Of a stretch of 64,000 nt of DNA, positions 16,005-60,181 are shown piece after piece (within the stretch, counting starts at the first letter, position 1; each line of letters opens with the position of its first letter). The translations under genes and the position numbers were made by a program. The notes beneath the pieces are model-generated. The model had not been told where the DNA came from and searched no databases. It saw only the letters and a list, made by a program, of their open reading frames with translations. Source of the stretch: Bacteroidia bacterium (GTDB lineage Bacteria > Bacteroidota > Bacteroidia > M30B66); assembly GCA_965279035.1 (NCBI GenBank), contig OZ257142.1, forward strand, positions 192,001-256,000. The letters are read 5' to 3'.

Positions 16005-17828
16005 ATGAACTCTAAACTTTTACTTGCCATGTTCTTGGGTGCGTCTGCTACGCTGAGCGCTCAAAATGCTAGTACGCAGTCTGTACGAGCGAACACAACC
16101 AAAAAGAACTCGTATGTTCACCAACATGCAGCTCATTCTTCAAATTCATCTACAAACAGAGTTGACATTTGGTCTAACGACTTTTCAAACGCTGCAGATT
16201 GGGTAATCTCTAATGAAGTAGGAAATTCTAGTAACTGGAGTATCGGGACAACTGCTCCAAACGGGTCTTTCCCTATTACAGCCATTGCTTCAACATCAGC
16301 GGCTAATGGTTTTGCCCTTTTCGATTCTGATCTAGATTGTTCACACAATCAAATTGCTGATTTGACAACAGCAAATTCAATTGACTGTTCAGCTTTCCCA
16401 GCTGTAGTTCTTGAATTCCAACAACAATATCGTCGTTTTGATGATTCTACCTTTGTTTTTGTATCGAATGATGGTGGTACAAACTGGGTGAAATACACAG
16501 TAAACGGTTCATTAACAAACAACGATGCAACTGCAACTAATCCTGATATTGCAAAAGTAAATATCACACCAACAGCTGGAGGACAAGCAAACGTTAAAGT
16601 TCGTTTCCAGTTTTGGAGTCCTGCTACTTATACAACAGGAATTGCAGGAGCGCCTGGTTGTGCTTATGCTTGGATGATAGATGATGTTAAATTAGCTACT
16701 CCTCCAGATTATGAGTTAATGGTAAACACAGTATACCATGGTGATCCATACGATCATTTTGAATATGGTACTTATCCATTGCTTCAAGTTGATACAGTTC
16801 GCGTAGTTGCAATTGTTCGTAACGAAGGAGCTCTTGCTCAACAAGCTACAGTGAATTATACTGTAACTCGTGGAGCAACTACAGTAAATAGTGGCTCATC
16901 TGCTTCATTTGTAATTCAACCATTTACAAATGATACAGTTATCGTAAGTACTGCTTATGTTCCAGATGCTGTAGGTAACTATTCTGTTGCTGCAACAGTT
17001 TCATCTGCAAATACTGATTTTGATCCTTCCAACAATGCTGGTTCTTCTGACTTCGTAGTATCTCAATACATTTATTCAGGTCTTACTAGCTTAACAGGTG
17101 TTTCTGCATTAACTTTCTCAGGTGCTGGTCCTACTATTTTTGATGCAAGTAAAATTGCTCATCAATATTTGATGATTAATGATGCTCCTTGTAAAGCGAT
17201 TGATATTGCAGTTTCATCACTTTCTGATGACATCAGCTTAATTATTGAACTTTTTGATGCTGCTGATCTTAACGTAGCTCTTTCTGTAGGTGATTTTAGT
17301 ATCACTTCAACTCATCCTACAACAGCTCAATACTTTACCATTCTTTTAGATGAACAAAATTTAACTGCTGGTAATGTTTATGTTGCTTCTGTTGGATCTG
17401 AAGCAACTGATAAGAAATTTGATTTCTATGGTATTGATGGTGACCCTGATGATGCAACACTTGTTAATGTACCTGATGATAATGGAGTATTAACTTGGTT
17501 CCGTACTGACCTTACTCCTGCTGTAAACCTTAACTTCAATCCATCTGTTGGCATTGCTGATGTTAATGCTTCTCCAGTAAGTGTTAATGTTTATCCAAAT
17601 CCAGCTAATGATCAAATTTCTTGGAACGTTAAACTTCAGAATTCTACTTCTATGAATATCAGTTTAATTGATATTAATGGTAAAGTTGTATTCAACAAAA
17701 CTGTAAAAGGAAAAGTTGCTTCTTATTCTGATACATTGAATGTTTCTGAATTTGCAAATGGAGTTTATACACTTCAAGTTAAATCAAACGAAACAACAAA
17801 CTCTCAGAAAATAGTGATTGCTCACTAA
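16005..17828 (+). CDS. Secreted protein with T9SS type A sorting domain
   Basis: Signal peptide and C-terminal VYPNPAND...NGVYTLQV...KIVIAH. Beta-rich body. TATTTTTG box at 15919-15926. Confidence 0.88.
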   Translation: MNSKLLLAMFLGASATLSAQNASTQSVRANTTKKNSYVHQHAAHSSNSSTNRVDIWSNDFSNAADWVISNEVGNSSNWSIGTTAPNGSFPITAIASTSAANGFALFDSDLDCSHNQIADLTTANSIDCSAFPAVVLEFQQQYRRFDDSTFVFVSNDGGTNWVKYTVNGSLTNNDATATNPDIAKVNITPTAGGQANVKVRFQFWSPATYTTGIAGAPGCAYAWMIDDVKLATPPDYELMVNTVYHGDPYDHFEYGTYPLLQVDTVRVVAIVRNEGALAQQATVNYTVTRGATTVNSGSSASFVIQPFTNDTVIVSTAYVPDAVGNYSVAATVSSANTDFDPSNNAGSSDFVVSQYIYSGLTSLTGVSALTFSGAGPTIFDASKIAHQYLMINDAPCKAIDIAVSSLSDDISLIIELFDAADLNVALSVGDFSITSTHPTTAQYFTILLDEQNLTAGNVYVASVGSEATDKKFDFYGIDGDPDDATLVNVPDDNGVLTWFRTDLTPAVNLNFNPSVGIADVNASPVSVNVYPNPANDQISWNVKLQNSTSMNISLIDINGKVVFNKTVKGKVASYSDTLNVSEFANGVYTLQVKSNETTNSQKIVIAH

Positions 17829-31610: not shown

Positions 31611-34600
31611 TTAGTTGTTGTTTAGGTAATGAAGATGAATCATCACTGAATTAAGGTTGCTGATTACATTGAGGTAATCGTTTTGAATCGATATTGCCTG
31701 ATTGGTTAACATAACCCAATCGAGATAATTAATATCCCCATTTAAAAATTGACGGTTAGCCGTTTCAATTATCGTTTTAGCATTCGAAAGAGCCGTATTC
31801 TCATAATATTCAGCTGTCTTTGTAAAATTTTGAAAGCTTGTTAATGCTTCTTGAAACTCAGCTCCCAGCTTGTTCAGTTCTGAATTATACACGTTTTCTG
31901 CAATCAATTGATTAATCCCTGCAGCTTTAATTCGAGCTCTTTGTGATCCAGAAAACAAGGGAATTCCTAAACCAATTTGTCCCGATTGAAAACGTGTTGA
32001 ATAAGAATATGTGGTATTGTCTGAGCCTGTTCCAAGCATCGTCATATTACTATATCCCAATGATAATGAAGGGAGAAGCTTTGATTTTTCAAGTCTCCTA
32101 CTAGCAATGGATACCTGCTTTTGTTGATCAAGGATTTTCAAAGCAGGATGTTGAAGATTCATTGTTGAAGCTGAAAACGAATCTTTCATTTTAAAACCAA
32201 TGTCTTCAGGTACAAACTTCGAATTTGAATTCAGTAATAATTGAAATTCTAATAAAAGCAATCTTTCTTCTGTTTCAAGCTGATTCAATTGAATAGAAAT
32301 TTGTCCTCTTTGCATTTGGGCAGAAGTGATTTCTATTACATTGCTTTCTCCACTAGAAAATCGTTGCTGTGTTTTTTCAAAAAAGCCTAAGTATAAACTA
32401 TCAATTTTAAGAAGTAATTGCCGCTTTTCTTTCAGAAACAATAAACCATAATACGCTTGCCTAACAGCCCGTGTAATTTCAGCTTTCTTCAAGTCAATCT
32501 GAAGAATATATCCCTTAAAGTCTTCAGAATAAAGTGTTTTTTGACGAGAGTAAACCGTAGGAAAGCTAAAATTCTGAGCGAGCCCAAAACGATTATCATG
32601 ATATCGACTATTGATATTTCCATATTCTGCTCCAATGGATGTCTGAGGTATATCCCAAGCTGTATTTTTAAGTTGCTTATGATATTCTGCTAATAGAGTT
32701 TGGTTTTTAACCAGAAGATTGTTTTTCAAGGCTGTGTCGATTGCTGTTTGAAGCTTGATCGGTTGTTGAGCAATTGAAGCACTTCCGGAGAGAAATAAAA
32801 AAATAACAAGTCCAATTGTTGCACTGTTCTTTTTCACCTTTTGAGAGCCTGTTGTCTTCTCGAATAATATGTAAAGAATGGGCAAAACAAACAATGTTAA
32901 AAAGGTGGCGATCAATAACCCTCCAATGACAACTGTTGCTAAAGGACGTTGAACTTCTGCTCCAGCACCATTACTTAAAGCCATAGGAAGAAAACCAAGC
33001 GATGCAACAAAGGCTGTCATTAACACTGGGCGTAAACGAATTTTAGTTCCCATGAGTACAATTTTATTAAGGTCGGTCCAGCCTTCCGCTTTCAATCGAT
33101 TGAACTCTGCCACTAAGACAATCCCATTCAAAACGGCTACTCCAAACAAAGCAATAAATCCAACTCCCGCTGAAATACTAAATGGCATTCCCCTTAGGCT
33201 CAAGGCGAAAATTCCACCAATAGCCGAAAGTGGAATTGCAGAGTAAATGAGAAGTCCTTGACGGATTGAGTTGAAAGAAAAATAGAGTAGAATAAAAATT
33301 AATAATAAGGAAACAGGGACTGTAATACTTAATCGCGCTTTGGCTGCATTGAGGTTTTCAAATGCACCTCCATATGTTATTTGATATCCAGCAGGTAGTT
33401 TCAAGCCTTTCTTAACTTTTATTTGTAATTCATTAACGATTGTTTGAACATCTCTTCCTCGTGTGTTGAACCCAACTACGATTCGGCGTTTTGCATCTTC
33501 ACGTTGAATTTGATTGGGGCCTTCTTTCATCTCCACATTGGCTAATTGCGATAGCGGGACTTGTTGTCCACTAGGTGTTGGAATTAATAGATTCTTCACG
33601 TCTTCGATGTTTTCTCTTTGCTTACCATCTAAGCGCACAACGAGATTAAAACGTTTTTCACCTTCGTAAACAAAGCCTGTACTTTGCCCCGCTAGTCCTA
33701 TGTTTACCACTTTATTTATGTCTTCTATAGACAATCCAAATTGCGCAATAGCGGCTCGATTATAATCAATGACTATTTGTGTCATCCCTGTGACAGGTTC
33801 TACATAAATGCCTGTAGCACCTTCAACAGTTGAAGAAATTTCGCCCAGTTTTGTAGCGTAGTGGGCTAGGGTATCTATATTTTCACCAAATATTTTGCAT
33901 ACTACATCTTGTTTTGCACCTGTCATCAATTCATTAAAACGCATTTGAACAGGATATTGAAAGCTGACTGTTATTCCCGGAACTTCGGAGATTGCTTTGG
34001 TCATTTTTTCGGCTAATTCGTTAAATGTTGTTGCCGAAGTCCATTCACTTCTATCTTTAAGAATCACCATCATATCAGCGGCTTCCATTGGCATTGGGTC
34101 TGTCGGAATTTCTCCACTACCAATTTTAGTAACGACTTTTATTACTTCAGGAAAACGGTTTTTGAGAATCCCTGCTGCCTTTTGTGTGCTTTCGATGGTT
34201 GTTTTTAAATTACTTCCAGTAAGGACGCGGGTTTCCACAGCAAAATCGCCTTCTTCAAGCGCAGGAATAAATTCTCCACCCAAAGTTGACAACAGATAAA
34301 TTGAAAGAGCGAACATCACTAAAACAACAGAAATCAATGCCTTAGGAATTGCAAGTGCTCGATGAAGTGCATGTTGAAATTTCTTTTCGAAGAAAATCAT
34401 CATTCGATCTGAAAACGTCTTCTTATGTGAGCTGTTTTTACTCATCAAAAGCGAGGTAATCATGGGAACGTAAGTCAATGAAAGGATGAAAGCCCCAGTT
34501 AAAGCAAACACTACTGTTTGAGCCATTGGCTTAAACATTTTCCCTTCAATTCCCTGTAAGCTCAATATGGGTAGATAAACAACCAAGATGATGACTTGTC

Positions 34601-35963
34601 CAAATACAGCACTGTTCATCATTCTTCCAGTAGCCGATTTCACCTCGGTATTCATCTCTCCTTGTGTCAATCTCAACCCTTGCCCGAATCGTTTGCTATG
34701 TGTTAATTGGTGAAGTACTGCCTCAACGATGATTACCGCTCCGTCTACAATAAGCCCAAAATCCAAAGCACCAAAACTCATCAGATTGCCACTAACGCCG
34801 AACAAATTCATCATGATAACGGCAAACAACATGGCTAATGGAATAACAGAAGCGACGATAAATCCAGCCCTAAAATTTCCTAGAAAAAGGATTAAAACGA
34901 AAAGCACGATGAGAGCACCTTCCATCAAGTTCGTTTCGACAGTACCAATGGCATTGTTTACCATTTTAGTTCGGTCAAGGAAAGGTTCAATGACAACACC
35001 TTCGGGCAGTGTTTTTTGAATTTCGGCAACGCGGGCTTTCACATTTTCGATGACTTCATTGCTATTAGCCCCTTTGAGCATCATGACGATTGCCCCAGCT
35101 ACTTCGCCTTGATCGTTATAACACATAGCTCCATATCGAGTAGCACTACCAAAACGAACTTCTGCTATATCTCGAATTAATAATGGTGTTCCGTTCGAGG
35201 TGTTTTTAATGAATGTATTTTCAATGTCTTTGAGATTTTCAACTAAGCCTTCGCTCCGTATATATAATACCGTCGGTCCTTTTTCAATATAAGCACCTCC
35301 TGTATTTTGGTTGTTCTTTTCTAGAGCAATAAAGACTTCGTTAATTGTAATGTTGTTTGCTTTGAGTTTATTGGGTTCAACAGCTATTTCGTATTGCTTT
35401 AGATTACCTCCAAAGCTGCTCACTTCAGCAACTCCTTTCACTCTCAACAGATCACGCCGAACTACCCAGTCTTGAATGGTTCTTAAATCACTTGCGGAAT
35501 ATTTCTTTTCGAAACCCTTTTCAGGACGAATAACATATTGATAAATTTCCCCAAGTCCTGTTGTAACAGGTCCTAATGAAATAGAACCAATGCCTTGTGG
35601 AATTTCATCTTTCACTCCTTGAATTCTTTCTGCCACCTGTTGTCGAGCCCAATACACATCCACATTATCATTAAAAACGATGGTAACGAGTGAAAGTCCA
35701 AATCGAGAGAAACTCCGAATTTCATGGATACCAGAAATGTTGCTATTGGCTAATTCAATTGGGAAAGTGATAAGTCGTTCAATATCGGTTGCCCCCAATG
35801 ATGGAGCAACAGTAATAACTTGAACCTGATTGTTTGTGATATCAGGTACAGCATCAATTGGCAATCGTGTAAATTCATAACTGCCATAACCGATCAAAGC
35901 CAGAATAAATAAGGCGATGATTAATTTATTATTCACGGAAAATTCAATGATTCTATTGAGCAT
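31611..35963 (-). CDS. czcA: CusA/CzcA family heavy-metal RND transporter fused to a C-terminal TolC-like domain
   Basis: LPIDAVPDIT, GALDFGLIVDGAVIIVE, RLRPVLMTA and GAEVQRPLATVVIGG, followed by ~400 extra residues of OEP-like helical sequence. Confidence 0.93.
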   Translation of the reverse strand: MLNRIIEFSVNNKLIIALFILALIGYGSYEFTRLPIDAVPDITNNQVQVITVAPSLGATDIERLITFPIELANSNISGIHEIRSFSRFGLSLVTIVFNDNVDVYWARQQVAERIQGVKDEIPQGIGSISLGPVTTGLGEIYQYVIRPEKGFEKKYSASDLRTIQDWVVRRDLLRVKGVAEVSSFGGNLKQYEIAVEPNKLKANNITINEVFIALEKNNQNTGGAYIEKGPTVLYIRSEGLVENLKDIENTFIKNTSNGTPLLIRDIAEVRFGSATRYGAMCYNDQGEVAGAIVMMLKGANSNEVIENVKARVAEIQKTLPEGVVIEPFLDRTKMVNNAIGTVETNLMEGALIVLFVLILFLGNFRAGFIVASVIPLAMLFAVIMMNLFGVSGNLMSFGALDFGLIVDGAVIIVEAVLHQLTHSKRFGQGLRLTQGEMNTEVKSATGRMMNSAVFGQVIILVVYLPILSLQGIEGKMFKPMAQTVVFALTGAFILSLTYVPMITSLLMSKNSSHKKTFSDRMMIFFEKKFQHALHRALAIPKALISVVLVMFALSIYLLSTLGGEFIPALEEGDFAVETRVLTGSNLKTTIESTQKAAGILKNRFPEVIKVVTKIGSGEIPTDPMPMEAADMMVILKDRSEWTSATTFNELAEKMTKAISEVPGITVSFQYPVQMRFNELMTGAKQDVVCKIFGENIDTLAHYATKLGEISSTVEGATGIYVEPVTGMTQIVIDYNRAAIAQFGLSIEDINKVVNIGLAGQSTGFVYEGEKRFNLVVRLDGKQRENIEDVKNLLIPTPSGQQVPLSQLANVEMKEGPNQIQREDAKRRIVVGFNTRGRDVQTIVNELQIKVKKGLKLPAGYQITYGGAFENLNAAKARLSITVPVSLLLIFILLYFSFNSIRQGLLIYSAIPLSAIGGIFALSLRGMPFSISAGVGFIALFGVAVLNGIVLVAEFNRLKAEGWTDLNKIVLMGTKIRLRPVLMTAFVASLGFLPMALSNGAGAEVQRPLATVVIGGLLIATFLTLFVLPILYILFEKTTGSQKVKKNSATIGLVIFLFLSGSASIAQQPIKLQTAIDTALKNNLLVKNQTLLAEYHKQLKNTAWDIPQTSIGAEYGNINSRYHDNRFGLAQNFSFPTVYSRQKTLYSEDFKGYILQIDLKKAEITRAVRQAYYGLLFLKEKRQLLLKIDSLYLGFFEKTQQRFSSGESNVIEITSAQMQRGQISIQLNQLETEERLLLLEFQLLLNSNSKFVPEDIGFKMKDSFSASTMNLQHPALKILDQQKQVSIASRRLEKSKLLPSLSLGYSNMTMLGTGSDNTTYSYSTRFQSGQIGLGIPLFSGSQRARIKAAGINQLIAENVYNSELNKLGAEFQEALTSFQNFTKTAEYYENTALSNAKTIIETANRQFLNGDINYLDWVMLTNQAISIQNDYLNVISNLNSVMIHLHYLNNN

Positions 35964-48315: not shown

Positions 48316-49824
48316 ATGAAATTTAAGTTTCTACTCCTCTTTATTGGGGTGTTTCAGTTTGCCTCCGCCCAAAGCGAGTCCTACAGTTGGATTTATGGCA
48401 ATTGTGACAGCACTGAGAATAATTGTACTGGTTGGTATGGGACTGCCGTCATTCAATTTAACGATGATAGTATTGAAAGTATTCGAAGAGTTGATTTTCC
48501 AACAGCTTTTGGTTTCCTTTCATCATGTATTTCAGACTCAGAAGGAAATCTTGTATTAGCGAATAGTAACCATATGGTTTATGATTCATCAGGAAATACC
48601 TTATTAGATTTAGAAACCAATGACTATACTAATTTTCAATTGGGTTATTTAAGGTATTCGGCCCTTTTCTTTAAATTAAGAGAGCCTAAAAAAAATTATT
48701 ACTTCTTGAACTTTAAAGTAGCATGGGTTGATTCAGCAGAAAACCCTCTTATGAATAACCGAATTAGCAGAATTTACCTTAGTAAAATTAAGGTTGATGA
48801 AAATGGTTATGAAATAATGAATATCGATACTCTTTTCAGAAATGATACTATACTAGGTGCCGGTATGCAGGCATGTCGCCATGCTAACGGTAGAGATTGG
48901 TGGATTTTCAGTAACACATACAATCAGAAACAATTCTTAAGAGGATTATTAACTCCCAATGGTGTTGATTTTGAATTATACGATGGACCCGGCCCTGATT
49001 TATTTCAAAACTCTGGGCAAAATCAATTTAGCTCTGATGGAACAAAACTGTTCCATTACTTATCTACATACTACCGGAAAATGCAGATTTATGATTTTGA
49101 CAGATGCACGGGTGAATTGAGTAATTTTCGGGAGATGGATTTTAGTTCATATATCCCTTTTCCGCCATATGATTTTACACCATATGTATTAAGTCCGGAC
49201 GCTAGTAAAATATACATGGGAAGATCGAATCCAAGCCCAGTAGTTTCATATCAAAATATTCAAGTTGATGTTGCAAGTGGGCAAATGACCGTTGTTGCTG
49301 ATAGCGTTTTTGTTCCTTGCCTTACGCCCAATTTAAAATGGGTAGTTTCGGGTTATCAATCTGTTACTTGGTCGCATATTGATAGAATAAATGCACTCAC
49401 ACAACCCAATGAACTAGGAGCTGATTGTAATCGAATTCGGGATTTATATTCTTTGCCTGTGGATGGTTTTGTTTTCGAACCTATCGAATACGCCAATCAT
49501 TTACTTGGTCCTATTGACGGCAGTAGTTGCGACACTTTAGGTTTAGATGATGAAACGGGAATTCAAAAACAAAAAGAATTCAGCTTTCAACTTTTTCCCA
49601 ATCCAGGAGGAAATCAATTAACTATTAAAACTGATATGCCTTTACCTGTCAAGCTTGTACTGCGAGATTCACAAGGAAAAAATGTATTCGGAAAAGAATT
49701 CAATAAAAATTCATTTTCAATTCAACAGGAATTAATGGAATTAAATCAAGGAATTTATTTTGTTGAAATAATGAATGTGGCTCAACATAAACGATTGGTT
49801 AGGAAGTGGATGAAGGTGGAATGA
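48316..49824 (+). CDS. Secreted T9SS type A protein (beta-propeller-like body)
   Basis: Signal peptide, ACRHANGRDWW, FSSDGTK, DFDRCTG and LSPDASK blade-like motifs, and C-terminal LFPNPG...QGIYFVEI. Confidence 0.85.
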   Translation: MKFKFLLLFIGVFQFASAQSESYSWIYGNCDSTENNCTGWYGTAVIQFNDDSIESIRRVDFPTAFGFLSSCISDSEGNLVLANSNHMVYDSSGNTLLDLETNDYTNFQLGYLRYSALFFKLREPKKNYYFLNFKVAWVDSAENPLMNNRISRIYLSKIKVDENGYEIMNIDTLFRNDTILGAGMQACRHANGRDWWIFSNTYNQKQFLRGLLTPNGVDFELYDGPGPDLFQNSGQNQFSSDGTKLFHYLSTYYRKMQIYDFDRCTGELSNFREMDFSSYIPFPPYDFTPYVLSPDASKIYMGRSNPSPVVSYQNIQVDVASGQMTVVADSVFVPCLTPNLKWVVSGYQSVTWSHIDRINALTQPNELGADCNRIRDLYSLPVDGFVFEPIEYANHLLGPIDGSSCDTLGLDDETGIQKQKEFSFQLFPNPGGNQLTIKTDMPLPVKLVLRDSQGKNVFGKEFNKNSFSIQQELMELNQGIYFVEIMNVAQHKRLVRKWMKVE

Positions 49825-50368: not shown

Positions 50369-50396
50369 AATTATACGTACGAAATAATTATATTTG
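50369..50396 (+). promoter_or_regulatory. TA operon promoter with probable autoregulatory palindrome
   Basis: AATTATACGTACGAAATAATT imperfect palindrome (core CGTACG) abutting a TATATTTG -7 box at 50389-50396. Confidence 0.5.
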
Positions 50397-50414
50397 CACG
50401 TAAGCATTAGGCGT

Positions 50415-50660
50415 ATGGACACCAAATTAACACTCAAGCTTGAGCAATCGGTGATTGAAAAAGCGAAAGACTATGCTAAAAAACAGCAAACTAGCTTGTC
50501 GAGATTGATAGAAAATTATCTTTTAAACATTACCAATGAGGAAGAAAGTGAAGAAAAAATAACTCCATTGGTTAAGAGTTTATCGGGCATAATTGATCTG
50601 CCGAATGATCTAGATTATAAAAAAGAATATGCTGATTATCTCAGTAATAAATACAAATAA
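50415..50660 (+). CDS. Ribbon-helix-helix antitoxin (DUF6364-like)
   Basis: MDTKLTLKLEQSVIEKAKDYAK...SLSRLIENYL and TPLVKSLSG. Overlaps the PIN gene by 1 nt. Confidence 0.85.
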   Translation: MDTKLTLKLEQSVIEKAKDYAKKQQTSLSRLIENYLLNITNEEESEEKITPLVKSLSGIIDLPNDLDYKKEYADYLSNKYK

Positions 50661-51070
50661 TGGAACGTGTATTTGTTGATTCTGATATTATTCTGGATTT
50701 ATTAGGAGGCAGAGAACCATTCTATAAATTTTCTGCCGAACTATTTTCTATATCCGACAAAGGAAAAATTAAACTACATGTTTCCTCTTTATCCTTTGCT
50801 AATTTGAACTACATTTTATCTAAGCAGTTTTCGTCAGAACAAGCGCGGAAAAAATTATTGAAATTTAAAACACTGGTCACTGTTTTGGCTGTCACGGATA
50901 AAATCGTTGATCTTTCATTAGCTTCTGATTTCAAAGACTTTGAGGATGGACTTCAATACTTTAGTGCAATAGAAAATGGAATCAATCTTTTACTAACTCG
51001 AAATCTAAAAGATTATAAATCAGCTGAAATTAGTGTAATGACCGCTGAGCAATTTTTGAAAGGAAAATAA
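50660..51070 (+). CDS. PIN domain toxin (VapC-like)
   Basis: VFVDSDIILD, DFEDGLQY and TRNLKDY acidic PIN motifs. Confidence 0.9.
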   Translation: MERVFVDSDIILDLLGGREPFYKFSAELFSISDKGKIKLHVSSLSFANLNYILSKQFSSEQARKKLLKFKTLVTVLAVTDKIVDLSLASDFKDFEDGLQYFSAIENGINLLLTRNLKDYKSAEISVMTAEQFLKGK

Positions 51071-51139
51071 AAAAGCGAAACCCTTTCCTCCTCTATAAGG
51101 CAATCGTACAAAAGGTTTTAAGCTGAAGTCAATGAATCC

Positions 51140-52096
51140 TCAAGCTGAAGTTTTCATTGCTCGAAGATTCACCAACATATCGCCGGTCATTTTAGCTAAA
51201 TCGAATTCGGGATTCCAGTTCCAGTCTTTACGGGCTTCGCTGTCGTTGATTGAAGCAGGCCAGGAATCGGCAATGGCTTGGCGGAAATCGGGTGCATAGT
51301 CGATACGAAAATCGGGGATGTGTTTGCGTATTTCTTCAGCTAGATTTTCGGGTGAAAAGCTCATTGCTGCGAGATTATAGGAAGAACGAATACGAATCTG
51401 CTCAGCTGGAGCTTGCATAATTTGGATGGTGGCGTTAATGCCATCGGGCATGTACATCATCGGCAAACGCGTATTGGCCGAAAGGAAACTGGTGTAAGAA
51501 CCTTTCTCTATCGCTTCATGAAAAATGTGTACAGCATAATCGGTCGTTCCTCCGCCAGGTGCCGATTTCCAGCCTATCAATCCCGGATAACGCAGAGATC
51601 GAACATCTACGCCAAATTTCTGATGGTAATATTCGCACCAGCGTTCACCTGCCAATTTCGAAATGCCATACACGGTGGTTGGCTCAGCTATGGTGTTTTG
51701 TGGCGTTGCAATTCGAGGCGTAGTTGGACCAAATACAGCGATGGAACTCGGCCAGTAAAGTTTTTTAATCTTGCCTTCTTTAGCAGCATCCAACAAATGA
51801 AACAGCCCGTTCATGTTGAGATCCCAAGCTTTCATCGGGAATTTCTCTCCCGTTGCTGATAGCATCGCAGCTAACAGATACACTTCCGAAATGCGATACT
51901 TGGCAAATATCTCCGACAAACGCTGTGTATCTAAAACATTGAGTTGCTCAAATGGACCGTCCGATTCGGTGGGAATGTTCAAGTCGGCTGCAATTACTTG
52001 AGATGAACCGTGGATTTCACGAAGTCGGCTTACGAGTTCTGTTCCGATTTGACCGGAAGAACCAATTACCAGGATGTGATCCGTGGAAGAAGGCAT
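51140..52096 (-). CDS. NAD-dependent epimerase/dehydratase (L-threonine 3-dehydrogenase-like SDR)
   Basis: GSSGQIG, LSATGE, PSSIAVFG, YGISK, GGGTTDYA and RQAIADSWP. Confidence 0.88.
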   Translation of the reverse strand: MPSSTDHILVIGSSGQIGTELVSRLREIHGSSQVIAADLNIPTESDGPFEQLNVLDTQRLSEIFAKYRISEVYLLAAMLSATGEKFPMKAWDLNMNGLFHLLDAAKEGKIKKLYWPSSIAVFGPTTPRIATPQNTIAEPTTVYGISKLAGERWCEYYHQKFGVDVRSLRYPGLIGWKSAPGGGTTDYAVHIFHEAIEKGSYTSFLSANTRLPMMYMPDGINATIQIMQAPAEQIRIRSSYNLAAMSFSPENLAEEIRKHIPDFRIDYAPDFRQAIADSWPASINDSEARKDWNWNPEFDLAKMTGDMLVNLRAMKTSA

Positions 52097-52208
52097 AGTT
52101 TGGATGGTTTTGGGGCGATAAAGGTAGAAAAAGAGCGCTCATAGCAAGTGTCTCACAGCGATTCATCCACCTGCATGTGAAGAAAAAAATAAGACGACAC
52201 TCGATATG

Positions 52209-52240
52209 TTTGCATATTATATGTACACTTAGTATATTTG
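52209..52240 (+). promoter_or_regulatory. Consensus Bacteroidota promoter with putative MarR operator in the spacer
   Basis: TTTG (52209-52212), 20 nt spacer, TATATTTG (52233-52240). Imperfect palindrome ATATTATA-TGTACA-CTTAGTAT at 52214-52235. Confidence 0.65.
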
Positions 52241-52259
52241 TCGGCTCATACTCAAAACC

Positions 52260-52679
52260 ATGTGGAAAGGAAACGCAAGCATCATCACCCAAAAGGCTAC
52301 TATCGACCAGCTTTGGAAGACATTAACCGACATACAAAACTGGAACACTTGGGATCTGGACATTGCATGGACGAGCATAGAAGGTCCAGTAAAACTGGGC
52401 GCTGAATTTTACCTAAAGCCCAAAGATGGACCTAAAACCAAACTGCACATTTCGGAATACACTGCTCCCAATGTATTTAGTGACATTGCACATCTGCCCT
52501 TGGCAAAAATGCGAACTACTCATCGCTTTGTCCAAACAGAGCAGAGCGTAGAAATCCATATTGAAGTGGAAGTGCGCGGTTTATTGAGCTTTATCTGGAG
52601 CCGAATCATTGCTCAAAACCAGATTAAGGGCGCTGAGCAACAAACGCAAAACCTCATCAACAAAGCGGGCGAGCTATGA
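52260..52679 (+). CDS. SRPBCC/polyketide cyclase-like protein
   Basis: LWKTLTDIQNWNTWD helix-grip motif and GLLSFIW. Confidence 0.8.
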   Translation: MWKGNASIITQKATIDQLWKTLTDIQNWNTWDLDIAWTSIEGPVKLGAEFYLKPKDGPKTKLHISEYTAPNVFSDIAHLPLAKMRTTHRFVQTEQSVEIHIEVEVRGLLSFIWSRIIAQNQIKGAEQQTQNLINKAGEL

Positions 52680-53107
52680 GAGCACAAAAATTCTTCATCG
52701 GAGCTGTCTCGCGAGATCATACCAAACGAGGCGAATCGGGCGGTTTCATGCAAGTGTGTCATGGAAAACAAGCACCACTTAAACGCATGCAAAAAGGCGA
52801 TTGGATTATTTTCTATTCCTCCAAAATCTCCATGCAGGGCGAGGAAAAATGTCAGGCTTTTACAGCAATCGGACAAGCTTGCGATGAGGCCGTTTATGGC
52901 TTTGAAATGTCACCCGAGTTTGTGCCCTTTCGCAGAAACGTTTCATTTTATCCATGCGAGGAAACTGCCATTGCGCCGCTCATTCCACACTTAGAATTTA
53001 TTCCCGACAAAAAGCGTTGGGGATATCCGTTTCGATTTGGTTTCTTTGAAATCGGTGAAAAGGACTTTCGCCTAATTGCTTCACACATGCTTCCCAATGA
53101 GTTCTGA
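52676..53107 (+). CDS. EVE domain protein
   Basis: VSRDH...QVCHGKQAPLKRMQKGDWIIFYS, FTAIG and WGYPFRFGFFEIGEKDF. Confidence 0.9.
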   Translation: MRAQKFFIGAVSRDHTKRGESGGFMQVCHGKQAPLKRMQKGDWIIFYSSKISMQGEEKCQAFTAIGQACDEAVYGFEMSPEFVPFRRNVSFYPCEETAIAPLIPHLEFIPDKKRWGYPFRFGFFEIGEKDFRLIASHMLPNEF

Positions 53108-53564
53108 ACCAAACCCCTTTCAGTTTGAAGAAGCCAACGACAGCTCCGGATTTTTACTCTGGCAGGTAACAAGTCTTTGGCAACGCGAAATCCGCAAGGC
53201 ACTCGAACCCTTCGATTTAACTCATTCGCAATTCGTTCTCCTGGCGAGCATGCACTGGTTAACGCTCAAAAAAAAAGAAATCACACAAATCATCTTGTCG
53301 CAACACACCAAAATCGACCCGATGACAACCTCAACGGTCCTTCGCACCTTACAAAGCAAAGGCTTAATTGAGCGCAAAGAACACAGCACCGATACGCGCG
53401 CTAAATCAGTAGCACTCACACCTGCAGGAAAAACCAAAGTGCTTCAAACAGTCAAAATTGTAGAAGCTTTTGACGATGAATTTTTCGCCATCCTCGGCAA
53501 AGAAATTCCGGAATTCAATCAGAAATTGTTGCGGTTACTTGTTCCTAGAATGATTAAAAGTTAA
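53097..53564 (+). CDS. MarR family transcriptional regulator
   Basis: SGFLLWQVTSLWQR, LTHSQFVLL and DTRAKSVALTPAG. Start at MSSEP. Confidence 0.9.
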   Translation: MSSEPNPFQFEEANDSSGFLLWQVTSLWQREIRKALEPFDLTHSQFVLLASMHWLTLKKKEITQIILSQHTKIDPMTTSTVLRTLQSKGLIERKEHSTDTRAKSVALTPAGKTKVLQTVKIVEAFDDEFFAILGKEIPEFNQKLLRLLVPRMIKS

Positions 53565-53606
53565 AATCTAGAAGCTTATTAGAATCTTTAATTCCTGCAA
53601 CAGCAA

Positions 53607-53744
53607 CCTCGGACTTCAGTCCGAGTACCATTAAGAAAAATGCTAGTTCAGATAATTGAAATACAGCTGGTTGTCAAACACATTGCATTAGGGACCTCGG
53701 ACTGAAGTCAGAGGTTGCTATGGACAGAGGTTGGATTATATCAA
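53607..53744. repeat. Direct repeat copy 1 (138 bp) containing two REP-like palindromes
   Basis: CCTCGGACTTCAGTCCGAGT (53607-53626) and CCTCGGACTGAAGTCAGAGG (53695-53714). Near-identical to 56509-56647. Confidence 0.93.
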
Positions 53745-53761
53745 TGATATAGAGGCCGCGG

Positions 53762-56392
53762 CTAATGTTGAATAATCACCTTTCGGAATTCTTTTCTGTT
53801 GTTGCTATTCCAGCTAAGGATATAGATTCCCGCTTCTGCATTCACCGATATTTCCGATTGATTTGAAGAATAGGAAACATTACAATTTATTTCTCTTCCA
53901 TCGAGACTAAACAGCATAACGCTACCCTTGTCAATTGAATGTATGTGTTGAATATAAAAACGACCCTTGTTGGGATTTGGATAAATCGCCAATACGTCTG
54001 TTGTTTTTTCAATAGAAGTTGTAATTCCTCCTGTGTTTGCAAGCCATGAAAGAGGGTATTGATTGACTGCGTTTTTTAAGAACCGAATTAAATCTGGATA
54101 AGCATCATCATTCAAATCGGCATGACCAAAATTCATAATGTATTCATTATTATTGGAAGGTAGAAAGGTATCAGGGGCTGCAAATTCTGCAGTTCCATCA
54201 TTAAGGATTAACGCGCTCCTGTAATTGATACTTGATGTTGATACATAAGCCAATAACACAACATCGACATCATTATCTAAGTCAAAATCCATAGACTCCA
54301 AAGCCACACCTTTCCAATTAGGTTGTGTCGTAATAAAAGCCTCCTGAGGATTAAAGTTTCCTCCTCCCATATTCTCAAAATACAAAAAATAATTGGGGTT
54401 CGCTGTAGAACCAAATGCAGCAACTAGCAAATCATTTCGTTGATCTTGATTAATATCAGCCACTTTAATGTCTTTAATTGACAATAATTGATTGGTAATT
54501 ACCCTAATAGTATCGAACAAACCATTTCCCAATGATTTCATCCAAATTGCAGAAGTATTACTCCCAGAAATTAGATCGGGGAAATTGTCTTGATCCAAAT
54601 CGGCAGTCAATAATAATTCACTTCCCCAAGTAACAGAATCGGCAATGAGCATTGGTAATTCAAAAACACCATTGCCCGAGTTACGTATTGAATACACTTT
54701 TCGATAGGTGTTGTAATATCCCAATTTGAATGTTCCAGCTAAATCAATATTTCCATCTTGATCAAAATCGGCAGCAGTGATTTTTGCTCCAGAATTCATA
54801 TGATTTGCAATTATTTCCGGATCCTGAAAATCCCCAATGCCATTGTTCCGGAATAGTTGAATGTTAGAATCGGCAATAGATACAGCTACGATATCCAAGT
54901 CTAAATCATTGTCAAAATCTGCCACACTGATATCTTTCAAATTCAATACAGAATAGGAAATAATTATTGGTTCGCTAAAGTTTCCTGCACCCATATTATC
55001 GAAATACACCAGTTTATCATCATTCTTCGATCCCGCAACAAGGTCCTGATCTCCATCTCCATCAACATCGGCTGGAATTACATTTTGAATATTTACAAGT
55101 TTTGGATAAACAACAAGTCGGTTATTCCAATCTCCATTATTGTTTCTTTGGTAAACCGATAATGTTCCATAATCTGAATCTCCTGCAACTAAAATTTCAT
55201 TAATTCCATCATTATTTAAATCGACAGTACAATTCCATAATCCCTCTGTATTTTTATGATCAATTGGATTTATTAAAAAATTAGATCCGTCTCCAGTGTT
55301 TTCGAAAATGAGCATTACAGAAAACAATCCCAATAAATCTATATCTCCATCAGCATCAATATCTGACGTGGTGAAATGACCAGCATTTGAATTATTAAAT
55401 GGAATTGGATTCCCAAACTGCCCAGCACCAAAATTTCTTTGCCAATAGGAATTACCATCATATTTATTGTAAACAAAATCAATGAGCGAATCACCATTCA
55501 AATCAGCTAATTTGAAATAGAACACTTGGTGTTCGCTAGCCCCGGTTATCCACTGTTTCGGACCAAAACTACCATTGCCTAGGTTTTCCATCCATCCTGC
55601 AAAACCATTAAAACCGGATGCAAAAAAGACATCTAAATCTCCATCGTTTTCTATATCGCCCAATTCTACATTAAAACCTTGAATGGTGCTATCACTTAAT
55701 ATAGTTTCAATAGAAAATAGCGTATCATTAAATGAGTTATTACTGAATACAGAAATTTTTCCAGGAAGGTCACTAAATCCATATGGGTCAATGGTGTCGT
55801 TGAAATATTCAACCGTTGATTGTAAACTTGAAGCTACTATTTCTAGACCTTGAGAACTATCTAAATTACCTGCACGTACGGTTGAAATATGTCCGAAATT
55901 CTTAGCAATAAACTTCCCTTCAGAAAATAAACCATTTCCTAATCCTTGGTATATAAATATTCTTCCTTGTTCTTTAGATGGTGGCGGTGGTGGCGGTCCA
56001 GGACCAAACGAATTAACGATTCCAATATTCCCAGAGTTGTTAGGAACGATATAATTAACAGCACAAACCACATCTTTTTTCCCATCCTCATCCACATCTG
56101 CCACAATCATATTATTAAAACTCCAGCCAATAAAGGCGGTATCCCAAGGTGGATTGCTCAGTTGGATGGGCTCTGAAAATCCATTATTCCCATTGTTTGG
56201 CCACCAATACACATTGCTGGAAAAGGCAATGATGGCATCCTCAAATCCATCTTGGTTAAAATCCCCTTTGTCAATGGAAACAGGATAACCCAAAATCATA
56301 TTATGAATGAGATTGTTAGGAGTTCCAAATTGAGCCTTTGCATTCGTACTGTAACAGGCTAAAAGCAAGTAACATATTAGAAACCTATTCAT
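53762..56392 (-). CDS. FG-GAP/VCBS-repeat secreted protein with T9SS type A sorting domain
   Basis: Signal peptide MNRFLICYLLLACYSTNAKAQ, many DxDxDGDxD loops (ADVDGDGDQDLV, ADFDNDLDLDIV), and C-terminal IYPNPNKG...AGIYIL...KVIIQH. Confidence 0.9.
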   Translation of the reverse strand: MNRFLICYLLLACYSTNAKAQFGTPNNLIHNMILGYPVSIDKGDFNQDGFEDAIIAFSSNVYWWPNNGNNGFSEPIQLSNPPWDTAFIGWSFNNMIVADVDEDGKKDVVCAVNYIVPNNSGNIGIVNSFGPGPPPPPPSKEQGRIFIYQGLGNGLFSEGKFIAKNFGHISTVRAGNLDSSQGLEIVASSLQSTVEYFNDTIDPYGFSDLPGKISVFSNNSFNDTLFSIETILSDSTIQGFNVELGDIENDGDLDVFFASGFNGFAGWMENLGNGSFGPKQWITGASEHQVFYFKLADLNGDSLIDFVYNKYDGNSYWQRNFGAGQFGNPIPFNNSNAGHFTTSDIDADGDIDLLGLFSVMLIFENTGDGSNFLINPIDHKNTEGLWNCTVDLNNDGINEILVAGDSDYGTLSVYQRNNNGDWNNRLVVYPKLVNIQNVIPADVDGDGDQDLVAGSKNDDKLVYFDNMGAGNFSEPIIISYSVLNLKDISVADFDNDLDLDIVAVSIADSNIQLFRNNGIGDFQDPEIIANHMNSGAKITAADFDQDGNIDLAGTFKLGYYNTYRKVYSIRNSGNGVFELPMLIADSVTWGSELLLTADLDQDNFPDLISGSNTSAIWMKSLGNGLFDTIRVITNQLLSIKDIKVADINQDQRNDLLVAAFGSTANPNYFLYFENMGGGNFNPQEAFITTQPNWKGVALESMDFDLDNDVDVVLLAYVSTSSINYRSALILNDGTAEFAAPDTFLPSNNNEYIMNFGHADLNDDAYPDLIRFLKNAVNQYPLSWLANTGGITTSIEKTTDVLAIYPNPNKGRFYIQHIHSIDKGSVMLFSLDGREINCNVSYSSNQSEISVNAEAGIYILSWNSNNRKEFRKVIIQH

Positions 56393-56508
56393 AATAAAAT
56401 AGTTGTATGTGTAAAAATACTCCGAAAAGCAAAGAGACTTATTGCCTAAATGTTGAATAGTTGCATTTTTATTAACAGGCTTTATTAGCTCAAATCCAGC
56501 ATCTGCAC

Positions 56509-56647
56509 CCTCGGACTGAAGTCCGAGGACCATTAAGAAAAATGCTAGTTCAGATAATTGAAACTACAACTGGATGCCAAACACATTGCATTAGGGACCT
56601 CGGACTGAAGTCAGAGGTTGCTATGGACAGATGTTGGATTATATCAA
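56509..56647. repeat. Direct repeat copy 2 (139 bp) containing two REP-like palindromes
   Basis: CCTCGGACTGAAGTCCGAGG (56509-56528) and CCTCGGACTGAAGTCAGAGG (56598-56617). By eye, 7 substitutions and 1 indel versus copy 1. Confidence 0.93.
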
Positions 56648-56657
56648 CAACATTCGA

Positions 56658-56704
56658 TGCTATCCCCGGACTTCAGTCCGGGGATGCGGGGGGTGGGGAT
56701 AGCA
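56658..56704. repeat. Fifth, variant REP-like palindrome
   Basis: ATCCCCGGACTTCAGTCCGGGGAT (56662-56685) shares the CGGACTTCAGTCCG core. TGCTATCCCC can alternatively pair with GGGGATAGCA (56695-56704). Confidence 0.8.
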
Positions 56705-56761
56705 AATTCCTACTATAAAATTCCCCTAATTCTCTACCTTTGCAGCTCTATAAAATCACGC

Positions 56762-57823
56762 ATGTTTTTACACAACCGTGTCAATAAAGACGAGCTACGA
56801 GCGCGCATTCAGGCTGATAATACGCCACGCAACACGCTCTCTTTTTACCGATACGTTATTTTGGAAGATGCCCCTACTTTCCGCGATCAGCTATACAAAG
56901 AATGGCACGAACTGGGTGTTTTAGGTCGCATCTATTTGGCTTACGAAGGTGTGAATGCACAATTAAGCGTTCCAACAGCCAACTTCGAAGCTTTCCGAAA
57001 ACAAATCGATTCGCATCCTCAATTCAAAGATGTACCCTTTAAAATTGCCGTTGAAGATGATGGTAAATCGTTTATCAAACTGGTCATTAAAGTGCGCAAG
57101 AAGATTGTTGCTGATGGTCTCGACGACAATGCCTTCGATGTAACCAATGTTGGTAAACACCTAAGTGCCGAGGAATTCAACGAAGCAATGAACACGCCCG
57201 GAGTGGTGGTGGTGGATATGCGCAATCATTACGAAGCTGAAGTTGGTCGTTTCGAAGGAGCTATAACGCCCGATGTAGATACCTTTCGTGAGGAATTGCC
57301 TTGGGTAGTAGAAAACCTCAAAGACAAAAAAGACCAGAAAGTGCTCATGTATTGCACCGGTGGAATTCGTTGCGAAAAAGCAAGTGCTTACCTGCGCCAT
57401 CATGGATTTGAGGATGTGAACCAATTGTATGGTGGCATTATTTCTTATGCCCAAGAAATCAAGGAAAAAGGCATCGAGTCGAAATTCAAGGGGAAAAACT
57501 TTGTCTTTGATGAGCGTTTAGGCGAACGCATTACCGATGATATCCTCAGTAATTGTCACCAATGTGGCGAACCATGCGATACACACACTAACTGTGCGAA
57601 CGTAGATTGCAACCTGCTTTTCATTCAATGTGAGAATTGCCAAAAAGAATTCAACGGCTGTTGCAGTGCTGAGTGCATGGAAATTATTGCCTTACCCGAA
57701 GAAACCCAGAAAGAACTCCGCAAAAACAAAAATTACCAATACAGCAATATGTTGTACCGCAAAGGCCGACTTCGTCCAAGTGGACCACAACTTCAACAAT
57801 ACACGCTTAAATCCAAGTCATGA
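56762..57823 (+). CDS. trhO: Rhodanese-related tRNA uridine(34) hydroxylase (UPF0176)
   Basis: [42 protein letters not shown] and a Cys-rich C-terminus. TACCTTTG box at 56735-56742. Confidence 0.93.
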
Positions 57824-58599
57824 GCTTCCAAAATATTCTCGTTTCTGTAAACGAAGGCATTCAAACCATCACCGTAAATCGTCCCGACAAACTCAATGCG
57901 CTGAATTACCTAACCATTCAGGAGATTGGTCAAGCAGTTAAGCAAGGGAACAAAAATCCAGAAGTATTTGGGATGATTCTCACCGGCTCTGGTGATAAAG
58001 CCTTTGTGGCAGGAGCCGACATTAGCGAGTTTTCTTCCTATGGCGATATTGAAGCAGAGAAACTTAGTCGCGACGGAGGTGATGTTTTTAATAGCATCGA
58101 ACGTTCGGATAAACCAGTCATTGCAGCGGTAAACGGATTTGCATTGGGCGGTGGTTGCGAATTGGCGATGTCGTGTCAGATTCGTGTGGCATCTGAAAAT
58201 GCTCGTTTTGGACAACCCGAAGTGAATCTAGGTTTGATTCCCGGATATGCCGGAACACAACGTTTGGTGCAGCTTATTGGAAAAGGAAAAGCACTCGAAT
58301 TGTTGATGACTGCCGATATGATTGGTGCTGAAGAAGCGCATCGTTTAGGTTTAGTCAACCATGTGGTTCCGCAAGCCGAATTGATAAACAAAGCCACCGA
58401 AATCCTTAAAAAGATTGGCACAAAAGCACCATTAGCAATTGCTGCTGTAATTCGTTGCGTGAATGCTCATTTTCAATATGATGAAAACGGTTTCGATACA
58501 GAGATTCGCGAGTTTGCAGGATGTTTTGGAACCGAAGATTTTAAAGAAGGAACCGAAGCCTTTTTAGGAAAGCGTAAGGCGGAATTCAAAGGGAAATAA
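57820..58599 (+). CDS. Enoyl-CoA hydratase/crotonase family protein
   Basis: [20 protein letters not shown] and [12 protein letters not shown]. Confidence 0.93.
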
Positions 58600-58696
58600 A
58601 TCATTCTAAAATCCGATATATTCGGATGAACGAAATGTGATGGAGATTGATAGGAAAAAAACGTCCTTTGTTGCTGAAGCAAATGATTGATAAAGC

Positions 58697-60181
58697 GTGA
58701 ATCCTCTGCGTAAACTTGCTGGTCAAACGGCCATCTATGGGTTAAGTTCCATCGTTGGTCGACTGCTGAATTACCTACTGGTTCCGATTCACACGCGTGT
58801 TTTTCTTCCAGAAGCATATGGTGTAGTTACAGAAATGTATTCCTACGTTGCTTTCTTGATGATTGTGCTTACCTATGGTTTCGAAACTTCCTTCTTTCGA
58901 TTCGCCAGCAATCAAGAGGATCGTCCGCGTATTTATGCTACATCCCTCATTTCGCTCCTTATTAGTTCACTTGGGTTTTTCATCCTCTGTTGGATATTCG
59001 CAGGACCAATTGCTGAGTACATCCAATATCCCGAACATTCCGAATACATTGTTTGGTTTGCACTCATTTTAACCACCGATGCCGCTACTAGCATCCCATT
59101 CGCCAAACTACGACTCGAAAACCGCCCACTCAAATTTGCTTTTCTCAAGCTGGTAAACATTGGCGTGAATGTGCTAATTAATTTGTTTTTCCTGATGCTT
59201 TGTCCGTGGTTGCTCGAAAACGGTAGCCCATCTATTCAGGATGCTGTTCTTGATATCTATGATCCGAATATGGGTATTGGATATGTGTTCATTGCCAATC
59301 TGGTAGCGAGTTTAGTTACGTTTATCCTGCTAATTCCCGATATGTGGAAAATGAGCTGGAAATTCGACAATGAACTTTGGCAACGTATGATGAGGTATAG
59401 TTTGCCCTTGTTGATTGGCGGATTGGCGGGCACAACCAACGAAATGTTTAGTCGGATGAGCATGAAATATCAGCTTCCTAAATCCATTGCGATGCACGAT
59501 TTAGGGGTTTTTGGAGCCTGCTACAAAGTGGCTATTTTGATGACCATTTTCATTCAAACGTTTCGCTTTGCAGCTGAACCATTTTTCTTCACTCAAGCCC
59601 GGGAGAAAAACGCCAAAAAGCTCTACGCCGATGTGATGCACTGGTTTGTAATCGCTTGTAGTTTGATTTATTTAGGTGTGCTCATCTTCATGAATATTGT
59701 GCAGGAATTCATTGGAGAAGCCTATCACGAAGGATTGGTGGTTGTGCCCATTTTACTCATGGCTCAGCTGTTTTTGGGTGTGTTTTTCAACTTAAGTATT
59801 TGGTTTAAACTGAACGACCGCACATCAATTGGCGCTTGGTTGGCCATTTTCGGATCTGTACTCACCTTGATTCTAAACTATTTTTGGGTGCCGAAATTTG
59901 GTTATGTAGGTGCTTCCTGGGCTACGTTTGTGGTGTATTTGATGATGTTGATTGCCTCGTATCTGTTGGGACAGAAATATTATCCTATTGAATATGATTT
60001 ACGTCGGGTAATTGGTTATCCGGCCTCGGTTGCCATCATTGTTTGGCTTTACACACAGTATCTTCCTATGGAAGGCGCTCTATCATGGGTGCTAAAAAGC
60101 TTGATATTGTTAGCTTTTATTGGTGTTGTGTGGCTTCTTGAGGTACGGAAAAAAACCGTAATTTCGTCCCCTTCAACCTAA
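58697..60181 (+). CDS. Polysaccharide/oligosaccharide flippase family protein (GTG start)
   Basis: [16 protein letters not shown] and [12 protein letters not shown], with about 14 TM segments. Confidence 0.88.

Follow-up and report, generated by a model that had tools for sequence, protein, structure and literature searches.

A secreted FG-GAP protein gene bracketed by REPIN-like repeats in a Bacteroidia bacterium

The bracketed gene and its repeats

The window analysed here is a stretch of 64,000 nucleotides from a Bacteroidia bacterium (GenBank assembly GCA_965279035.1, contig OZ257142.1, positions 192,001 to 256,000 of the forward strand), and all coordinates are counted from its first letter. 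Between genes for a MarR-family regulator and a TrhO-type protein it carries a gene for a secreted FG-GAP/VCBS beta-propeller protein with a sorting domain of the type IX secretion system (T9SS), which is enclosed by two direct repeats built from repetitive extragenic palindromes (REPs; Table 1). Each repeat holds two REPs in inverted order and folds as one long hairpin, and thus resembles a REPIN, that is, a REP doublet forming a hairpin. The enclosed protein matches the Pfam families FG-GAP_3 (8 stretches, E 4e-56) and Por_Secre_tail, which, together with the sequence itself, bears out an earlier reading of this DNA that had placed an FG-GAP/T9SS gene inside the repeats, with its stop codon 17 nt from the end of the left one. 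On the other side, a 99-nt unique stretch separates the start codon from the right repeat. The left repeat accordingly lies between two gene ends and the right one in a divergent upstream region. A sub-threshold Pfam match of the same protein to TcdB_toxin_midN (19.3 bits, cutoff 24.8) was rejected as evidence for a toxin and is taken as repeat-level similarity of the beta-propeller blades.

Global alignment of 53607-53744 with 56509-56647 yielded 94.2% identity with 7 substitutions and 1 gap column, in agreement with the count of the sequence-only reading. A repeat search recovered the pair as two matches, 53659-53744 versus 56562-56647 (94% over 86 nt) and 53590-53661 versus 56492-56563 (89% over 72 nt), the latter being shifted from the 86-nt match by one indel. 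The copies share identical runs of 60 and 35 nt in direct orientation, and a unique segment of 2747 nt separates them. While the homology ends abruptly at 53744/56647, it continues more faintly leftward to about 53590/56492 and possibly to 53573/56478; sequence outside the repeats aligns at only 40-50%. In total, the copies are 6% diverged, with the divergence concentrated in the left third: most differences fall in the left arm, and conservation is higher in the spacer that separates the palindromes than in the outer arm. A scan for tandem repeats revealed nothing relevant. A 20-nt similarity (80%) between the 3' end of the gene (53764-53783) and 56449-56468 raised the possibility of a previous occupant of the site, of which it would be a relic; however, its order relative to the repeats is inconsistent, and it was therefore dismissed as a probable chance match.

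A search of the 64 kb for the 20-nt palindrome with up to 3 mismatches gave 9 strand-matches at 5 sites (53607, 53695, 56509, 56598, and 56664), as compared to none in 100 shuffles, and the 12-nt core with up to 1 mismatch was found at the same 5 sites alone (1.5 expected). Four of these form the two doublets, whose palindromes are 68-69 nt apart (68 nt in the left copy), as had been claimed before. The fifth is a solitary REP to the right of the right copy that had gone unmentioned; it carries two stem changes relative to the other copies with pairing kept, and its subtype is the source of most matches in other phyla (among the matches listed, see below). All five are short, GC-rich palindromes with stems of 8-11 bp, and all five are extragenic, lying in the gap between marR and the FG-GAP gene or in that between the FG-GAP gene and trhO. 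The stem feet are flanked by GCAA and TTGC at the doublets and by TAT and ATG at the singlet.

When the 150-nt units are folded as single-stranded DNA, either copy gives a single long hairpin (left, z = -7.0; right, z = -4.4), and extended units that include the flanks reach z = -5.9 for both copies. In the right copy, an outer stem pairs 56493-56504 with 56630-56641 and encloses both palindromes, so that the whole unit is an imperfect hairpin of ~150 nt, whereas most of that outer stem is gone from the left copy. The arms that remain there (53602-53638 and 53683-53719) are 81% complementary over 37 nt. The earlier claim that the left units are mutual reverse complements in a REPIN-like hairpin thus stands as far as the long hairpin is concerned, but the arms are approximate and not exact reverse complements. 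The hairpin ends coincide with the ends of homology, which fits discrete elements of the REPIN kind, that is, two inverted REPs plus a spacer that fold as a single long hairpin, and not an arbitrary segmental duplication. Inverted arms are also a feature of miniature inverted-repeat transposable elements of DDE transposons; when the sequence was read, neither copy was seen to be bounded by matching short duplications, the true ends being uncertain from two copies. Perfect hairpins with stems of at least 8 bp number 12 in the window, which is inside the shuffle range of 6-18, and the 9 away from the locus, none of them a member of a repeat family, resemble common terminators of the A-tract/T-tract form. 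In Rfam, no family was found at or near threshold for the repeat region; four microRNA-precursor matches (19-29 bits versus gathering scores of 60-100) were rejected as sub-threshold chance hits of a kind to be expected for any long hairpin.

Table 1. Features at the bracketed locus (window coordinates; a point in the strand column marks palindromes)
Feature	Position	Strand	Remarks
MarR-family regulator gene	53076..53564	+	left neighbour, convergent with FG-GAP gene; left repeat begins 25 nt past its stop
Left repeat copy (REPIN-like)	53590..53744	+	core long hairpin 53602-53719; outer left arm decayed relative to right copy
REP palindrome P1, left copy	53607..53626	.	TC loop
REP palindrome P2, left copy	53695..53714	.	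GA loop, one stem mismatch; inverted relative to P1 by loop and flanks
FG-GAP/VCBS beta-propeller gene, bracketed	53762..56392	-	876 aa, secreted; signal peptide and T9SS C-terminal sorting domain
Right repeat copy	56492..56647	+	long imperfect hairpin 56493-56641; in divergent FG-GAP/trhO region
REP palindrome P1, right copy	56509..56528	.	perfect 9-bp stem, GA loop
REP palindrome P2, right copy	56598..56617	.	identical to left P2
Solitary third REP	56662..56685	.	C/G stem variant, 11-bp stem; palindrome 56664-56683
UPF0176/rhodanese (TrhO-type) gene	56762..57823	+	right neighbour, divergent from FG-GAP gene; followed by enoyl-CoA hydratase gene

The palindrome and Y1 transposases in other genomes

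A genome collection was scanned with a degenerate 19-nt pattern covering the five palindromes of the window, which gave at least 122 stretches from at least 82 assemblies; flanks of up to 2 kb accompany 80 of the listed loci (numbered with the prefix L hereafter). At uniform composition, about 70-140 sites would be expected by chance in the whole collection, essentially all of them in different genomes. Among the matches listed, however, at least 19 assemblies hold 2-6 palindrome loci each, and the flanks of the palindromes are conserved within a lineage and differ between lineages, which together is the signature of repeat families. Such multi-copy, lineage-specific families with the 19-20 nt REP core occur in Acidobacteriaceae, Planctomycetota, Chlorobiales, Polyangiaceae, a Deltaproteobacteria metagenome-assembled genome (MAG), Bacteroidota, and others. 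When positions 51000-59000 of the window were compared by blastn with the 122 listed loci, the match was confined to the palindrome in its solitary variant and extended to neither the 150-nt element nor the genes beside it. A literature search with the palindrome as a word returned, judged by title, eukaryotic (primer-type) contexts and no bacterial paper.

Open reading frames (ORFs) in the flanks were clustered, and a profile was built from four of them that encode HUH transposases of the Y1 type. Among the 80 loci with flanks, 7 distinct places, spread over 6 assemblies, have a Y1 ORF next to a palindrome or between two of them. Those of L054/55 (a Chlorobiales MAG), L068 (Limisphaerales), and L080 (a Bacteroidetes MAG) score 75-94 bits with Pfam Y1_Tnp (cutoff 23), that of L027/28 (Portibacter marinus) reaches 27.4 bits with the same family, and that of L037 (Acidobacteriaceae) matches NCBIfam REP_Tyr_transpos with 108.8 bits (cutoff 80); L024 stays below both curated cutoffs, and for L056 there is a match to our own profile alone. 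An alignment of five of the Y1 proteins shows no variation at the HUH histidines or the catalytic tyrosine. Over 19 nt, the left P1 of the window is identical to the REPs that stand to the left and right of the Y1 gene in Portibacter. In L080, a REP doublet is found on either side of the Y1 gene, with the same internal order in both, and one of the two has 21 nt in common with a window copy, including the 5' flank GCAA. The repeat-gene-repeat architecture therefore exists for the transposase itself. With the same palindrome flanking Y1 genes elsewhere and the units of the window forming complete long hairpins, the earlier assignment of the repeats to the REP/REPIN-like kind processed by HUH tyrosine transposases is supported. 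Palindromes 340-930 nt apart were found at 7 places among the listed loci, of which 4 enclose a Y1 gene, 3 no recognisable ORF, and none a cargo gene; the ORFs between the palindrome pairs in L032, L086/87, and L103 resembled nothing recognisable.

Several further observations concern these loci. The REP core adjoins two kinds of Y1 protein, one with a Y---Q--HH motif (L054, L068, and L080) and one with a Y---NP motif (L037 and L027); example loci are L054:128-930, L068:1047-1644, L080:2001-2660, L037, and L027:2001-3003. The Y---Q--HH motif is the signature of "subclass 1.2", for which Table 1 of the source gives no associated secondary structure (PMC6006769). A REP core shared across many phyla and by two classes of Y1 protein may deserve a study of its own. 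In L024 (an Acidobacteriaceae MAG), palindromes lie at 2001 and 2158 and a Y1-like frame at 1635-2144 (Pfam 18.6 versus 23, NCBIfam 52.3 versus 80), with a REP within the 3' part of the frame, just past the tyrosine motif; as the REP is translated as part of the ORF, the frame looks like a REP-disrupted gene for a REP-associated tyrosine transposase (RAYT). In addition, the solitary REP of the window is followed ~17 nt downstream by a second copy of its stem-foot motif (56679-56704), and in L080:2568-2610, L088, and L031 the 3' half-stem plus a few bases is tandemly repeated once or twice beside the palindromes. These tandem copies could have arisen by slippage, or by cutting and rejoining at the hairpin.

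Possible origins of the bracket

REPs are extragenic palindromes, whereas REPINs are inverted, hairpin-forming doublets that act as the replicative unit and singlets are their remnants; RAYT genes are flanked by clusters of REPINs, whose REPs are their own substrates (PMC3116915; PMC6006769; PMC3733652). The locus resembles these REPIN/RAYT systems (Bertels and Rainey 2011, PMC3116915; Quentin et al. 2018, PMC6006769) in its short GC-rich extragenic palindromes, their arrangement as inverted pairs with a spacer, the single hairpin of about 100-150 nt, the singlet beside the doublets, and the bracketing of Y1 HUH transposase genes by the same palindrome in other genomes. It differs in its longer unit (~150 nt as compared to the 71- and 110-nt units of Pseudomonas fluorescens SBW25) and in its host, an uncultured Bacteroidia-type bacterium.

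We consider it probable that the bracket consists of two diverged, non-autonomous REPIN-type elements and a REP singlet around a resident surface-protein gene, and that it is a by-product of REPIN spread and not a cassette machine. The repeats would be diverged copies of one ~150-nt element, each an inverted REP doublet folding as a long hairpin, which would be copied within the genome by a Y1 HUH tyrosine transposase of the RAYT type encoded elsewhere. Such elements would settle in intergenic DNA, here in both gaps around the resident T9SS gene, and the bracket would arise through nearby insertion or local copying. Between the convergent marR and FG-GAP genes, the hairpins may mark the ends of transcripts or stabilise them. 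With their identical runs of 60 and 35 nt, the copies would, moreover, offer ordinary homologous recombination a usable substrate, by which the gene could be deleted and one hybrid repeat left behind. The sole mechanism that follows from the anatomy without extra assumptions is general homologous recombination from one direct repeat to the other, through which the gene would be lost or, in a Campbell-type event, gained. If this ordinary reading holds, the locus brings a REPIN-like family to light in an uncultured lineage of the Bacteroidia type and represents one more REP-flanked surface-protein gene, hence prone to loss by recombination; this would help annotation and the interpretation of assembly breaks but is unsurprising.

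Several observations weigh against this reading. The REPs of the window lack the canonical 5' GT[AG]G tag and are thus not of the canonical GTAG type, in which an unpaired GTAG (or CGTC) tag stands at one stem foot (Di Nocera et al. 2013, PMC3733652), a further difference from the described REPIN/RAYT systems; the tag is present at some of the Acidobacteriaceae matches, and some Y1 classes have REPs without the canonical foot (PMC6006769). The palindromes form one cluster only in the 64 kb, and no RAYT is encoded in the window: the Y1 profile matches no ORF of at least 50 aa, and Pfam finds no transposase among the 55 ORFs scanned, which confirms what had been read from the sequence before. 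If two independent elements fell into the 26 intergenic gaps of at least 50 nt, they would occupy neighbouring gaps in ~7% of cases (a post-hoc figure), and neighbouring gaps with the same orientation in about half of that, which hints at a local event that links the two copies. Furthermore, the FG-GAP protein has just three relatives (71, 69, and 63% identity), all full-length and colinear, and the next best match is at 31%. For the neighbouring TrhO, on the other hand, 14 of the 120 protein clusters listed show at least 79% identity (98, 96, 88, 87, 85 and so forth), the nearest of them with the source names "Bacteroidia" and "Flavobacteriales". The FG-GAP gene is thus patchy among relatives, which would also fit its gain or loss at this site. 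No high-identity short fragments of the protein were found, blastn of 53566-56710 against plasmid and phage collections gave no match, and neither these nor the other searches revealed a second copy or an alternative context of the gene.

Gain or loss is at the centre of a related explanation, in which the repeats are portable homology only: the gene together with one repeat would have been gained, or would be lost in relatives, through homologous recombination of one REPIN copy with another, either by a circle integrating in the Campbell manner or by pop-out deletion, resulting in a presence/absence polymorphism of a surface protein. We regard such a passive cassette as the less likely course of events, albeit one with some claim to attention. 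The direct orientation and the identical runs would suit it, the gene is patchy although TrhO relatives at 96-98% exist, and the placement in neighbouring gaps is improbable by chance. As a weak hint, the 71%-identical homologue lies on a contig of 2695 nt, near the 2747 nt of the unique segment, as if the assembly had broken at flanking repeats. There is also a precedent, since deletion of porA between REP clusters was reportedly described by van der Ende in 1999. [quoted passage not shown] However, those deletions were observed in isolates, whereas no deletion allele is seen here, and the repeat families are unrelated. More generally, no empty site, hybrid repeat, or alternative allele was seen in the data searched, the 6% divergence of the copies, mostly in the left third, speaks against a recent event, and T9SS cargo genes are commonly patchy with or without flanking repeats. 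Composition does not help either: the GC content of the gene is 0.36 versus 0.42-0.47 in its neighbours and that at third codon positions (GC3) 0.28 versus 0.36-0.49, but all six T9SS genes of the window have a GC3 of 0.18-0.28 (at most 0.282; window mean 0.334), five of them without flanking repeats, so that low GC was rejected as a sign of import and does not mark the FG-GAP gene as special.

The sequence-only reading had gone further and proposed a cassette system for surface-protein variation with a circular intermediate. In its enzymatic form, a trans-acting RAYT would cleave at the REP hairpins, which lie on the same strand at either end, and the 2.9-kb segment would be excised or moved in the form of a single-stranded circle, much as for a RAYT gene with its flanking REPs, with cargo replacing the transposase. 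What speaks for such an active unit comes from elsewhere, namely the Y1 genes bracketed by this REP, including the doublets of L080, and the excision of DNA between two same-strand hairpins by IS200/IS605 relatives (PMC6006769). A REPtron (a RAYT gene plus flanking REPs) or an IS200/IS605 insertion sequence (IS) resembles the locus in having a gene bounded by hairpins of one family on a segment of a few kb or less; however, the gene bounded here is not a transposase but carries FG-GAP_3 and Por_Secre_tail, without a Y1 match, and there is no tnpA or tnpB, which sets it apart from an autonomous element. Against active mobilisation stand the lack of a Y1 gene in the window, the finding of a cargo gene in none of the 7 listed palindrome pairs 340-930 nt apart, and the decayed outer stem of the left copy. 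The parts of the RAYT literature examined contain no case of cargo mobilised by a RAYT, and an E. coli mobilome preprint reports no circles from REPIN regions (10.1101/2024.07.17.603846). A cargo unit of this type that varies the cell surface appears very improbable. The proposal as a whole was not supported, considering also that REPs stand at 1 of the 6 Por_Secre_tail genes of the window (at 16005, 17899, 18900, 28795, 48316, and 53762), the last one, and that no second gene context was found. Were it true, the T9SS gene would be cargo mobilised in trans, an undescribed way of varying the cell surface. To our knowledge, RAYT/REPIN systems are regarded as vertically inherited and cargo-free, and this picture would change. 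Integron cassettes offer another comparison, as they combine a single gene with an imperfect palindromic recombination site (attC) and a circular form; in contrast, the locus has a repeat on both sides where a cassette has one attC, its palindrome is of a Y1-associated family, and there is no attI, no array, and no integrase or IS among the 55 ORFs.

Two explanations do without REP mobility altogether. The repeats could result from a local segmental event, for example if an intergenic block was duplicated in tandem long ago and the gene came to be inserted between its units, or represent a cis-regulatory element that is shared by, and was retained in, both flanks of the gene. Weak homology that runs about 10-30 nt to the left of the hairpin and a palindrome spacer that is better conserved than the outer arm would fit, and tandem REPIN units that include flanking sequence are known from P. 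fluorescens SBW25 (PMC3116915). However, the main homology ends are those of the hairpin, no Rfam family comes near threshold, and no integrase, IS, or tRNA lies nearby, and we deem this explanation improbable. A spurious duplication of one repeat during assembly, for which merely the general risk in draft and metagenome assemblies can be cited, is hardly credible: the eight differences between the copies argue against it, the flanks differ, and the third REP follows one copy only. An island linked to a tRNA was rejected as well, there being no tRNA gene in the window. REPIN-type elements that settled around a resident gene remain our preferred reading.

Neighbouring genes and other parts of the window

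A promoter-like motif (consensus TAnnTTTG) lies ahead of trhO at 56735-56742, to the right of all REPs. The FG-GAP gene is preceded by one-mismatch versions only, one of them inside the 99-nt unique stretch. A scan for sigma-70 promoters and terminators performed no better than on shuffled sequence.

The GC3 of the window is about 0.18-0.35 in the first 36 kb and about 0.36-0.53 in the rest, where two islands of low GC3 stand out, one at 48.3-51.1 kb and the other being the FG-GAP gene. At 50394-51070, in a low-GC stretch next to the T9SS gene at 48316-49824, the reading frames of a DUF6364 gene (88 aa) and, directly after it, a PIN-domain gene (136 aa) abut each other, which is the layout of a type II toxin-antitoxin pair. 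Finally, a 1450-aa ORF at 31611-35963 combines a full AcrB/RND transporter domain with a C-terminal OEP domain and appears to be a predicted fusion of the pump with its outer-membrane channel.

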